From the NCBI GenBank assembly GCA_964646315.1, contig CAZYDN010000002.1, positions 962 to 64,961 on the forward strand: a DNA stretch of 64,000 nucleotides. Reading direction: 5' to 3'. The DNA is from an uncultured Candidatus Saccharibacteria bacterium. Its GTDB lineage: Bacteria > Patescibacteriota > Minisyncoccia > Phycocordibacterales > Phycocordibacteraceae. The notes beneath the pieces were generated by a model. That model was not told the origin of the DNA. It did no database searches and saw only the letters and a list, made by a program, of their open reading frames with translations. A program made the translations under genes and the position numbers. Below are positions 36,084-64,000 of this stretch, piece after piece (position 1 is the stretch's first letter; every line of letters starts with the position of its first letter).

Positions 36084-36092
36084 TTTTTACGT

Positions 36093-36821
36093 ATGAACCA
36101 GGAACATAATCCCTTTATCGCATTCGGTTTCATCATCGGGATAGCTCTCATCCTGGCTACCTGTATAGGAGCATGGGCAGTGTTTGCGGTGCGAGCTCTC
36201 GACAATACGCTTTCTGTGACAGGTTCGGCTAAAACGGAAGTAGATTCCGATTCTGTTAAATTCTCGTTTACTATTTCACGAATTGTTCCTGCCACAGAGT
36301 TGGCTAGTGGAAGTGCGAGACTTGATGCTGATTTGGCTACAGCAAAGGCATATCTCGTAGTCCAGCAAGTCCCCGATAGTGAAATTGCAATTGATCCGGT
36401 GATGACAAACCAGATATACGAGAATAACGGTACTCAGGCGAATAGATATCAGATGTCGCGCACCATTATTGTGAATTCAACGCGCATGGATGCAATGACG
36501 GCGCTTACTGCCAATCTCTCCTCAGCACTCACCCAGAAGGGATTAGTGATTCAGTCGAACCAGCCTGAGTATTACTACAGCAAGCTAGCGGATTTACGCG
36601 TCTCACTTCTCTCAGAAGCTATTAAGGACGCCAAAGCTCGAGCAGGTGCGATTGCTAAAGAGAGTGGGCAAAAGGTGGGGAAATTGCGATCATCCTCTTC
36701 GGGTGTGGTACAGATTCTCGCACCCAACTCCATAGATGTGTCTGACTATGGGCAGTATGATACTTCTTCTCAAAAGAAAGTAATTATGGTGTCCGTTCGT
36801 TCTACTTTTGAAATTAAATAG
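36093..36821 (+). CDS. SIMPL-domain (DUF541) protein
   Basis: TM anchor plus SIMPL-like domain. Confidence 0.7.
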   Translation: MNQEHNPFIAFGFIIGIALILATCIGAWAVFAVRALDNTLSVTGSAKTEVDSDSVKFSFTISRIVPATELASGSARLDADLATAKAYLVVQQVPDSEIAIDPVMTNQIYENNGTQANRYQMSRTIIVNSTRMDAMTALTANLSSALTQKGLVIQSNQPEYYYSKLADLRVSLLSEAIKDAKARAGAIAKESGQKVGKLRSSSSGVVQILAPNSIDVSDYGQYDTSSQKKVIMVSVRSTFEIK

Positions 36822-36980
36822 GACACACTACATAGAATTGTCAGGATGTTGATACTAGATTCGAAGGAGCGGTATACTGCCAGCAGGGTGCGAAGGGAAC
36901 ATTGTGGCTCTTTGTAAACTATCTAAACGTCGACCACGTCAGCCAGTCGCACAAGCGACAAACCACGAAAGGGGTGGATT

Positions 36981-37489
36981 ATGGATTGGACCGACGAACG
37001 AGTAGAAAATCTAAAGAAGCTCTGGCAAGACGGCTTGTCCGCAAGTCAAATCGCAAAGCAGCTCGGGGGAACTACCCGGACGCAGTTATCGGCAAGGTGC
37101 ATCGTCTCGGCCTCTCGGGCAGGGCACAGCCCTCGAAACCTGCACGTCCGGTGTTCAAAGCTCCGCGAGCGCCACGGGCAACTACTAAGCCTGCCGCTCC
37201 TCGTCGTATCGCGGAGCCCGTTGTGACGAATGCGGTTTCGGAACCTATTCCGGAACCTGTTCGGTATATGGACGAGGCTCCAGGTTCGGCGACCATCCTC
37301 ACGCTTGGTGAGCACATGTGTAAGTGGCCCATAGGCGATCCGGCGGCCGATGGCTTTACCTACTGTGGGCGCAGGCAAGACGACGGTCCCTATTGCGGGG
37401 AACATGCTCGGGTGGCGTACCAGCCGATGCAGAAGAAAAAGCGTGCAGACCCAAGTGGCCTGATGCGCTCTGTCGAACGTTACCTCTAG
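36981..37489 (+). pseudogene. gcrA: GcrA-like cell-cycle transcriptional regulator, disrupted by a 1-nt frameshift near 37080
   Basis: Frame 0 reads MDWTDERVENLKKLWQDGLSASQIAKQLGG. The -1 frame reads AVIGKVHRLGLSGR...CKWPIGDP...YCGEHARVAYQP. Restoring one A in cggacg would give the canonical TRNAVIGKVHRL. GC is about 62%, against about 48% in the flanks. Confidence 0.6.
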
Positions 37490-37494
37490 ACGAA

Positions 37495-37524
37495 AGGGCT
37501 CCGCGAATCTGCGCGGAGCCCTTG
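37495..37524 (+). terminator. rho-independent terminator (agggctccgcgaatctgcgcggagccct)
   Basis: 11-bp GC stem directly after the gcrA-like stop. Confidence 0.65.
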
Positions 37525-37546
37525 TCATATTCCTTACGAATTTCAC

Positions 37547-37942
37547 CTATTCCTTTTGAAACTCTAGGCACACTGAATTAATGCAGTAACGTTTACCACC
37601 CGCTTCCTTTGGTCCGTCATTAAAAACATGACCTAGGTGACTATTGCAGTGCTTACAAAAAACTTCCGTGCGACTCATTCCGTGCGCATCATCTGTTCGT
37701 GTACCCACATTCTCAGCTACGGCTGGATCGGTAAACGATGGCCAGCCACTCCCCGAATCAAATTTATTATCAGAAGAAAAGAGCGCTACTCCGCATACTT
37801 TGCAGCGGTACATTCCCGACTCATGATTGTCTAAGAGCACACCCGAAAAAGGAGCTTCGGTACCTCCCTCACGAAGTACTCGGAACTCGTCTGGAGTGAG
37901 AGTTTCTCTAAGGGTTTCGTCGCGTATTTCCTTGGATTCCAT
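37547..37942 (-). CDS. msrB: peptide methionine sulfoxide reductase MsrB
   Basis: CxxC...CxxC zinc site and the GWPSF/RYCINS motifs. Confidence 0.9.
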   Translation of the reverse strand: MESKEIRDETLRETLTPDEFRVLREGGTEAPFSGVLLDNHESGMYRCKVCGVALFSSDNKFDSGSGWPSFTDPAVAENVGTRTDDAHGMSRTEVFCKHCNSHLGHVFNDGPKEAGGKRYCINSVCLEFQKE

Positions 37943-63242: not shown

Positions 63243-63345
63243 GGAAGAGTTTGGCTACACTACAGTATTGACAAATAATCAAATAAGGTGTAATATGTAT
63301 ATGGAAAAGGCATGACGCCTTTCGTCCATTTTGGAGGGGAAACCC

Positions 63346-63996
63346 ATGTTCAACAAGACGATTCTCGCGGCCTCGGCCGCTTGCGCCCTCTTCTTCGGCA
63401 CCTCGGCCTTCGCGGCGGATTCCGACTGGCACGTCAGTGTCGGCGCGGGCTCGACGCAGATCGAGGACGAAAACGGATGGTCGCCCAGTGCTCGCGGTGC
63501 GAGCCTGGAACTGGCCCTCGGGCACGACCTCATGACCATCGGCGACATCACCTTCGGCCTGGAGACCGGCGTCAAGCACAACTGGGGCGACGCCTCGGAA
63601 CGCTCCCAGACCTGTGACGTGCCCAGTTGCGGCTACGTCGAGTACGGCACGTGGACGGCGTCCTCCCCCTGGTCGGGCAAGCTGGGCATCAACGCCCGGC
63701 ACCCGCTCGGTCCGGTCGACGTCTCGGTCGCGGCCGGCATCCAGCTCAACCAGCTGGTGCAGGAGTCGTCCTACGACTCCGGCGGCAAGGTGACCTCCTA
63801 CTGGAAGGACACCGACTTCGCGGTCGGTCCCTACTGGCGGGCGGGCGCGGACTACGCCTTCGGCGACACCTGGACGGCCGGGCTCGCCTACGAGCACGCC
63901 GACCTCACCCGCTCCAAGTGGAGCAGCACCTTCGGCGGGGGCTCCGACAAGCTCAATGCCGACAGCTGGTCCCTGCGGATCAGCAAGAAGCTCTGA
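63346..63996 (+). CDS. outer-membrane beta-barrel protein (OmpA/OmpW-like, PF13505-type) in about 70% GC DNA
   Basis: Signal peptide MFNKTILAASAACALFFGTSAFAAD and alternating amphipathic strands; GGAGGGG RBS. Confidence 0.55.
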   Translation: MFNKTILAASAACALFFGTSAFAADSDWHVSVGAGSTQIEDENGWSPSARGASLELALGHDLMTIGDITFGLETGVKHNWGDASERSQTCDVPSCGYVEYGTWTASSPWSGKLGINARHPLGPVDVSVAAGIQLNQLVQESSYDSGGKVTSYWKDTDFAVGPYWRAGADYAFGDTWTAGLAYEHADLTRSKWSSTFGGGSDKLNADSWSLRISKKL

Positions 63997-64000
63997 CGCC

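Follow-up and report, generated by a model that had tools for sequence, protein, structure and literature searches.

The 64-kb window analyzed here, a stretch of contig CAZYDN010000002.1 from an uncultured bacterium (GenBank assembly GCA_964646315.1), contains a GcrA family gene at positions 36981-37489. GcrA is a cofactor of RNA polymerase sigma70 and a reader of N6-methyladenine (m6A) at GANTC. This is a known kind of protein in an unexpected phylum, and its conserved presence in the Paceibacteria is the interesting part. Judged by the proteins encoded around it, the gcrA host is a bacterium of the candidate phyla radiation (CPR), within the Paceibacteria, and not an alphaproteobacterium. 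In the literature that we searched, no paper was found that links GcrA with the Patescibacteria or the candidate phyla radiation.

We propose that gcrA was taken up long ago from the Caulobacteraceae by an ancestor within the Paceibacteria and was then inherited vertically. The gene would have been domesticated: it has a CPR-type sigma70 promoter with a conserved leader where alphaproteobacterial gcrA has its DnaA-box/CtrA-box region. In relatives gcrA is intact and under purifying selection, and throughout the clade it lies immediately ahead of msrB, in convergent orientation. In the window species, the allele that most assemblies carry has lost one A from the Asn34 codon, in the DNA-recognition helix, and is presumably null, with the intact allele still segregating in at least one sample. 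Taken as a whole, with its Caulobacteraceae ancestry, old residence, domestication and young null allele considered jointly, we regard this explanation as probable.

A GcrA gene in two reading frames

The gene and its lesion are laid out as follows.

36981-37489, + strand: gcrA, a two-frame gene; 169 aa after repair; family match by Pfam
36981-37080, + strand: gcrA coding part 1, codons 1-33 and the first base of codon 34; helices 1-2 of the DNA-binding domain
37080/37081, + strand: site of the 1-nt deletion, AAC (Asn34) to A-C, from comparison with the intact allele L001
37081-37489, + strand: gcrA coding part 2 (-1 frame), the rest of codon 34, recognition helix, Pro/Ala-rich linker and sigma70-interacting domain
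37487-37489, + strand: gcrA stop codon TAG, end of the -1 frame part

The first frame starts with the ATG at 36981, reads MDWTDERVENLKKLWQDGLSASQIAKQLGGTTR, and then continues out of frame to a stop at 37226, giving 81 aa. The -1 frame is part of an open reading frame (ORF) at 36902-37489 that carries ...DAVIGKVHRLGLSGR...CKWPIGDP...YCGEHARVAYQP..., also given as ...DAVIGKVHRLGLSGR...MCKWPIGDP...GPYCGEHARVAYQP.... In codons, the intact CGG-AAC-GCA has become CGG-AC-GCA in the window, which reads CGG ACG CAG instead of the repaired CGG AAC GCA G. Addition of one A after 37080 (CGGACGCA to CGGAACGCA) restores the full 169-aa protein, in agreement with the single-A deletion that a preliminary description of this DNA had placed near 37080.

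The repaired protein matches the Pfam GcrA profile PF07750 over positions 1-154 of 155 with 191.6 bits (E=1.4e-56; curated cut-off, 26.9 bits) and aligns over its full length with the C. crescentus GcrA structure 7YE1_G (E=2e-71). Its earlier characterization as a near-canonical, alphaproteobacterial-type GcrA is thereby borne out. With the NCBIfam GcrA equivalog model NF050816 it scores 272.5 bits over positions 1-173 of 173, narrowly below the 280-bit cut-off. The single unbroken frame required of a GcrA family member is lacking in the window and in at least six other assemblies, and is present in the intact contig L001 and in all orthologs.

A probable old resident of one Paceibacteria clade

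Eight window proteins were looked up for exact matches and seven were found, all of them proteins from metagenome-assembled genomes (MAGs) that NCBI names Candidatus Pacebacteria/Paceibacterota bacterium. The named close homologs (at least 47% identity) of the neighboring 394-aa DUF8173/bactofilin-like protein are likewise all from Paceibacterota, Parcubacteria or Patescibacteria. Nine listed loci of related Paceibacteria have an intact gcrA in the same position, ahead of msrB and converging on it; they are ranked below by the identity of their neighboring DUF8173 protein to that of the window. In nearly all gcrA loci the order past msrB is VKOR, DUF8173, peroxiredoxin and HhH-GPD. A metagenome scan with the neighboring DUF8173 protein returned three loci. 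L104 and L106, by their names contigs of Hainich groundwater well H43, give the only hint of a groundwater source.

L002: GcrA 82-83% identical to the window protein; DUF8173 protein about 85-90%
L096: GcrA 82%; DUF8173 protein about 85-90%
L097: GcrA 80-81%; DUF8173 protein about 85-90%
L106: GcrA 81%; DUF8173 protein 80%, N-terminal 214 residues only
L104: GcrA 72-74%; DUF8173 protein about 87%
L187: GcrA 68%; DUF8173 protein 73%
L188: GcrA 66%; DUF8173 protein 65%
L190: GcrA 59%; DUF8173 protein 54%
L035: GcrA 70%; DUF8173 protein 49%; Paceibacterota MAG SMAG_U6922, 63.5% GC

No empty site was found in relatives down to 49% identity of the neighboring protein. The first gcrA-less relative appears at 48% (L192/L193), where the order is msrA, a gene for a 248-aa protein, an MFS transporter gene and msrB. 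Among the gcrA orthologs of the clade to which the window sequence belongs (the window clade), the ratio of nonsynonymous to synonymous substitutions per site (dN/dS) is 0.06-0.21 at dS of 0.46-2.1, and the divergence parallels that of msrB.

The sequences ahead of gcrA are also conserved, and comprise the following elements.

36849-36878, + strand: sigma70-type promoter TTGATA-N18-TATACT, consensus scan, 10 of 12 positions
36879-36980, + strand: gcrA 5' leader of about 100 nt, conserved in six window-clade orthologs; transcription start inferred
36946-36959, + strand: small leader hairpin GTCGC-ACAA-GCGAC, two pairs with compensatory changes
36971-36977, + strand: Shine-Dalgarno sequence GGGGTGG, ahead of the ATG at 36981

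The window clade and the more distant L187 and L188 have all kept both promoter hexamers and the following GCCGGCAGGGTGC, and the leader stretch CAAACCACGAAAGGGGTGGATTATGG is identical throughout the six window-clade orthologs. Comparison of the gcrA upstream region with those of 12 Caulobacteraceae/Phenylobacterium-type gcrA genes, which are strongly conserved, detected no similarity. Because gcrA occupies the same locus in diverged relatives, with high dS, low dN/dS and a conserved promoter and leader, it is probably an old, domesticated and selectively maintained resident of one Paceibacteria clade, not a recent arrival.

The composition of the gene does not alter this assessment. Every CPR ortholog of gcrA has excess GC, by 5 to 13 points, and the GC content at third codon positions (GC3) is 0.54-0.69 for gcrA in the CPR orthologs versus 0.40-0.51 for msrB. 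In the window, GC3 is 0.59 for gcrA versus 0.40 for msrB and versus 0.75-0.89 for alphaproteobacterial gcrA. The high-GC islet is no sign of recency but a stable trait of this gene, because the excess is present in every CPR ortholog. The preliminary description had suggested looking for the same gene at normal GC in close relatives as a pattern that would speak against it; the gene does occur at the same place in relatives, yet with a GC excess in all of them.

Some features of these loci deserve separate mention. The leader is unusually conserved in the window-clade species, with 26 invariant bases ahead of the start codon, and together with its small hairpin it may be a post-transcriptional control element. 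The L104 gcrA (324-833) has a TAG stop seven codons early, which removes the conserved ...SLRRYI tail, and it has the highest dN of the clade, 0.15-0.20; its truncation may represent a second, independent erosion of gcrA. Across this Paceibacteria family the gene order DEAD-DsbA-msrA...msrB-VKOR-DUF8173-Prx-HhH-GPD holds while genome GC varies between about 48% and 64%; the 63.5%-GC member L035 has gcrA, and the 59%-GC member L192 does not.

Origin of the Paceibacteria gcrA

The closest matches of the repaired 169-aa protein outside the CPR are Phenylobacterium and other Caulobacteraceae GcrAs, and the preliminary description was correct in regarding the gene as foreign to the host lineage. 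P0011, a chromosomal Caulobacteraceae GcrA, has 77% identity to the window protein and 86% to the L096 ortholog, and its neighborhood, with aminotransferase, ornithine carbamoyltransferase and Hsp33 genes, is unlike any CPR locus. Identity to the window protein is 70-75% for named Phenylobacterium GcrAs, about 73% for a Caulobacter sp. GcrA (L021) and 50-60% for GcrAs of more distant Alphaproteobacteria. No viral GcrA in IMG/VR is more than 60% identical, and for sequenced GenBank phages the figure is mostly about 31-37%. In neighbor-joining trees the window clade is nested among Phenylobacterium-like GcrAs, and it is monophyletic in 100% of 50 and in 88% of 300 bootstraps. These relationships point to Caulobacteraceae ancestry of gcrA, which we consider probable as part of the explanation given above.

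A different history, favored by the preliminary description, is a recent and possibly phage-borne acquisition that is now decaying. It would account for a gene that lies 10 GC points above its genome with its own promoter and hairpin, and for a family that is otherwise alphaproteobacterial or phage-borne. However, recency does not fit with relatives down to 49% neighboring-protein identity that have gcrA intact in the same place, with ortholog dS above 0.5 and dN/dS of about 0.1, nor with a GC excess common to all CPR orthologs. The cassette is without phage, integrase or repeat features, no mobility genes were found in the gcrA flanks, and the viral copies, at no more than 60% identity, are surpassed by the 73-86% of the chromosomal Caulobacteraceae genes. 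Recent acquisition is consequently quite improbable, and a phage origin is without support. Of the readings offered earlier, decay comes closest to what we observe, but the deletion is the sole lesion and the intact allele still circulates. An elaboration of the old-resident explanation, rather than an exclusive rival to it, is that gcrA was captured more than once from the Caulobacteraceae, and that in the window-clade ancestor a Phenylobacterium-like allele took the place of the resident copy. Replacement in situ is envisaged because at least two donor lineages are suggested and yet the window clade, L187 and L188 share a homologous promoter. The CPR GcrAs are monophyletic in 0 of 300 neighbor-joining (distance) bootstraps, 94% of bootstraps join the window clade to Phenylobacterium-like sequences, apart from L187, L188 and L190, and the quartet-informative sites divide 7:0:0 for the window clade with Phenylobacterium-like sequences versus L187 with Caulobacter. 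On the other side, forced CPR monophyly costs 6-11 extra parsimony steps (Templeton p = 0.08-0.20), the protein is short and the long CPR branches are prone to long-branch artifacts, and GcrA divergence rises with the divergence of the neighboring genes, as vertical descent predicts. We regard the chances of repeated capture as evenly balanced.

Consequences of the deletion for the protein

The N-terminal domain numbering of the repaired protein is identical to that of C. crescentus GcrA in the 7YE1_G alignment, so published contact residues can be read across directly. In Caulobacter GcrA, base contacts are made by R33 and N34, which also line the m6A pockets, and I37, G38, K39, H41 and R42 of the same helix are required for function; N34A/I37A and R42A/R33A substitutions impair or abolish it (Wu et al. 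2018, PMC5887438). In the C-terminal domain, K119, W120, G123, D124, P125 and G129 mediate binding to sigma70 region 2, with further contacts by F130, F132, Y142, V149, A150 and Y151 (PMC5887438). When these lists are mapped through the 7YE1 alignment, all of the DNA/m6A contact residues are kept in the repaired protein (M1, W3, W15, S20-S22, T32, R33, N34, I37, G38, K39, H41 and R42). Among the mapped sigma70-contact residues 12 of 14 are conserved, the changes being S126A and F132Y, and 11 of the 12 interface residues from K119 to Y151 are identical, with F132 replaced by Tyr. Other CPR orthologs retain F132. The intact protein would presumably work as in Caulobacter, with its C-terminal domain on sigma70 region 2 and its N-terminal helix-turn-helix on DNA.

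In the window allele the frame is broken at N34 and residues 34-42 are not translated in frame. The product has 33 native residues followed by 48 out-of-frame residues. Because such a product is without the recognition helix and without the entire sigma70-interacting domain, the deleted allele is expected to be a null allele with function abolished. Relaxed selection before the frameshift was considered but not seen, there being only one odd substitution (F132Y) at near-invariant sites.

The deletion is a genuine, segregating allele

The intact allele is represented by L001, a 942-bp Logan contig from SRR11088367, in which 941 of 942 positions equal window 36569-37509. The sole difference is the extra A, which gives AAC (Asn34) and a 169-aa ORF (P0001). 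The deleted allele (CCCGGACGCAGTT) is present in the assemblies of six other runs, among them SRR11088391, ERZ1749587, ERZ1749613, SRR12762276 and SRR12762275, and was verified in contigs L003/L010, L004, L005/L013, L008, L011 and L012. In five runs identity is 100% across window 36822-37546 (725 bp), and in SRR29748399 it is 100% over the 614 bp covered by its contig. Exact lookup of allele-specific ORF products found the deletion on about 10 contigs and the intact gene on 1. Since the same allele recurs in at least six other assemblies, the deletion is a genuine polymorphic allele that is dominant in the sampled populations, and an otherwise identical intact allele persists. It is probably a very young, segregating loss-of-function mutation, because there are no further lesions and the intact allele is otherwise identical.

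The contrary view, that the gene is truly intact and the missing A an artifact of this assembly, was among the options of the preliminary description. The A is present in the otherwise identical, independent contig L001, and the lesion is a 1-nt indel within a two-base AA run, but at least six further runs, belonging to several accession series and assembled with different programs (Logan, and ENA SPAdes 'NODE_' contigs), have the deletion, and the locus is 100% identical across them. Frameshift-specific ORF products are present on about 10 contigs, the consecutive NCBI accessions of msrB and SIMPL leave no room for a protein between them, and an AA dinucleotide is atypical as an Illumina error context, all of which makes an error highly improbable. 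A chimeric contig, in which an alphaproteobacterial fragment was mis-joined to a CPR contig, could be suspected from the abrupt GC step at each end of the gene. However, many independent assemblies span both junctions in identical form, other species conserve them with divergence, and the CPR-specific promoter and leader co-evolve with the gene; the likelihood of a chimera is negligible, and we rejected it. A further alternative is recoding, by which a programmed -1 ribosomal frameshift or transcriptional slippage would yield full-length GcrA from the deleted allele. The required shift is -1, both frames are open throughout 36981-37226, and a G5 run, CTCGGGGGAAC (37064-37068), lies 12 nt 5' of the lesion. 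Yet the overlap at 36981-37226 contains no canonical X_XXY_YYZ heptamer, all orthologs and one allele of the same species have a single frame, and a slip at the G5 run, which is the sole near-slippery site there, would turn T31-T32-R33-N34 into N-Y-P-D, with loss of R33 and N34; these essential residues would be destroyed by any shift 5' of the lesion. The programmed shift that had been proposed as a third option is thus very unlikely.

Several observations weigh against the explanation that we prefer, or limit how far it can be taken. The intact allele comes from one short, low-complexity Logan contig only, several of the runs possibly represent one site or time series, and the six runs may be one clonal population. 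The allele counts are counts of assembled contigs. Apart from the deletion the gene is without decay, F132Y being the single odd substitution at near-invariant sites, and low-level expression of a functional product from the deleted allele is formally possible. Within the 64-kb window we detected neither an ORF for a CcrM-like methyltransferase (DPPY/NPPY) nor rpoD. GANTC is unbiased in the window, at an observed/expected ratio of 1.00 by Markov expectation, and the GANTC enrichment that the preliminary description had suggested checking is absent there; the extended GcrA motif YGAKTCK is not enriched either (58 observed versus 67.9 +/- 8.1 expected). This lack of bias is uninformative about CcrM/GcrA activity, rather than negative.

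Neighboring genes, composition and annotation

The remaining features of the locus are listed here.

36093-36821, + strand: SIMPL/DUF541 gene (Pfam PF04402), upstream neighbor; at this position in some relatives only
37046-37546, - strand: spurious antisense ORF of 166 aa (160 aa from an internal ATG), overlapping the broken gcrA
37496-37521, no strand assigned: 10-bp G+C-rich hairpin GGGCTCCGCG-AATCTG-CGCGGAGCCC, between the convergent gcrA and msrB
37547-37942, - strand: msrB (Pfam SelR), convergent downstream neighbor; the constant gcrA partner in all CPR loci

The Pfam matches agree with the earlier placement of gcrA between SIMPL and msrB; msrA lies further upstream and VKOR downstream. 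The high-GC islet noted earlier is also evident, since 300-nt windows reach 0.56-0.62 GC within 36900-37500 versus 0.45-0.50 in the flanks. The gcrA coding sequence has a GC content of 0.589 versus 0.488 in the remainder of the window, and in a 400-nt scan of the whole window values of about 0.60 or above occur only at the gcrA region and at 63300-64000. The hairpin at 37496-37521 is kept at six orthologous loci, three of its pairs show compensatory changes, and no T-run follows it on the + strand. It is a probable shared terminator of gcrA and msrB. The gene had been described as a cassette with its own ribosome binding site and a strong terminator; it is indeed a self-contained cassette, the ribosome binding site is there, and so is the hairpin, but without a + strand T-run the term strong terminator is only partly apt.

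The antisense ORF was called in L003, L004, L005, L008, L010, L011 and L013, and its exact 160-aa product (P0152) is on 8 contigs; the product has no match in NCBIfam. The NCBI accessions for MsrB (MBP7741262.1) and SIMPL (MBP7741263.1) are consecutive, with no protein listed between them. Because the antisense ORF is called instead and nothing is listed between msrB and SIMPL, the gcrA of this species is invisible in protein databases, and a 160-aa antisense ORF is annotated in its place. In practical terms, annotation pipelines miss the broken gcrA and report an antisense ORF.

The gap between msrA and gcrA (window 36084-36980) is a variable slot, occupied by SIMPL in the window and in L106 and by a NUDIX gene in L188, and empty in L002, L104 and L187. 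A recent exchange of SIMPL between the window species and L106, considered on account of 97% amino acid identity over 70 residues, was rejected, the nucleotide identity being 76-80%, as elsewhere in the locus.

Possible roles of GcrA in a CPR cell

By homology, an intact CPR GcrA would be expected to bind at sigma70 region 2 and to recognize GANTC-type sites. The candidate polymerase target may be the CPR bacterium's own enzyme or that of a Caulobacteraceae host. A bolder suggestion is that this Paceibacteria clade consists of episymbionts or parasites of Caulobacteraceae that captured their host's cell-cycle sigma70 cofactor, possibly repeatedly at one locus, and brought its gene under a CPR promoter, and that the captured GcrA would read CcrM-methylated host-type DNA, or would couple symbiont transcription to the host cell cycle or interfere with that cycle. 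We would liken this to phages of the phiCbK type, which have been proposed to act on the host similarly. The suggestion is speculative, and on balance we doubt it. If it were true, the ancestry of gcrA would name the hosts of a groundwater Paceibacteria lineage, and the segregating null allele would mark a host switch or a relaxed interaction.

The frameshift itself is ordinary population-level gene loss. What gives the locus significance is a near-canonical GcrA, with its DNA/m6A-reading and sigma70-binding residues intact, that has been selectively kept across a Paceibacteria clade. It raises the questions of whether GcrA can be functional where the RNA polymerase is very distant and no CcrM is known, and whether Caulobacteraceae ancestry can serve as a pointer to the hosts of uncultured, presumably host-dependent bacteria.

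GATC is strongly under-represented in the 64-kb window, with an observed/expected ratio of 0.45 by base composition and 0.62 by Markov expectation. It is the lowest of all 4-mer palindromes, and GANTC is not under-represented. The scarcity of GATC may reflect a GATC-specific restriction or methylation system.

Another GcrA locus and a second high-GC islet

A divergent GcrA, 51-54% identical to the window protein, is encoded at 1568-2071 of L082, a contig from a MAG labeled uncultured Candidatus Saccharibacteria. The gene lies between dprA and topA and has 61% GC on a contig of 52% GC. Taking the MAG label as given, it may be an independent acquisition in another CPR lineage.

The second high-GC islet of the window, at 63269-63996, has a GC content of 0.65-0.69 versus 0.49.

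63346-63996: gene for an outer-membrane beta-barrel protein of 216 aa with a signal peptide (Pfam PF13505, E=7.9e-12)

The gene lies behind an AT-rich TTGACA-N17-TAATAT promoter, between DivIC-like and glutaredoxin genes. Homologs of 61-86% identity were found on five contigs only, including an NCBI Pacebacteria MAG. The flanks of the gene recur in five independent assemblies. A Gram-negative-type outer-membrane protein is unexpected in a CPR bacterium. Odd as it is in such a cell, this high-GC gene may fit the episymbiont picture.

Comparison with known GcrA systems and related phenomena

The prevailing view makes GcrA an invention of the Alphaproteobacteria, whose phages carry divergent copies (PMC3667746, PMC3556154). 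The repaired window protein resembles C. crescentus GcrA (CC_2245; PDB 7YE1, 5YIV, 5YIX) in its architecture of helix-turn-helix DNA-binding domain, Pro/Ala-rich linker and sigma70-interacting domain, and in sharing all of the published DNA/m6A contacts and 12 of 14 sigma70 contacts. It differs in being encoded in a CPR bacterium, without the conserved alphaproteobacterial upstream blocks, and in a context of msrA and msrB versus the aminotransferase, ornithine carbamoyltransferase and Hsp33 genes of the alphaproteobacterial P0011. The window allele is in addition frameshifted at Asn34, and F132Y and S126A lie in its sigma interface. The same differences of host, here Paceibacteria, and of gcrA promoter set it apart from the GcrA/CcrM module of the Alphaproteobacteria. 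The closest non-CPR sequences are those of Phenylobacterium and unclassified Caulobacteraceae (P0011, on a 634-kb contig, and L016), which have Q16, K53 and the RRQDDGPYC and QPAQ motifs in common with the window clade. Their genomes, however, have a GC content of 64-70%, their genes have a GC3 of 0.75-0.89 versus 0.59 in the window, and their upstream regions are unrelated.

The GcrA-like proteins of phages (gp222 of phiCbK-like Caulobacter phages, and those of Synechococcus phages) likewise represent the same Pfam family outside an alphaproteobacterial chromosome, and have been proposed to manipulate the replicative state of the host (PMC3556154). For an owner of GcrA other than an alphaproteobacterium, they are the closest precedent. 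They have only 31-37% identity to the window protein in the listed GenBank phages, and the window cassette is without phage context. A recently integrated mobile cassette is a poor analogy, since relatives down to 49% neighboring-protein identity have the gene at the same site and no mobility gene is found in its flanks. Genes with a programmed -1 frameshift, of the dnaX or insertion sequence type, differ from the window gene, which has no slippery heptamer and whose orthologs are single-frame. The closest parallel to the lesion is with ordinary frameshift pseudogenes and segregating null alleles, which it resembles in being a one-base deletion relative to intact orthologs and in the coexistence of two otherwise identical alleles, but here there are no further lesions, and in relatives the gene is under purifying selection.

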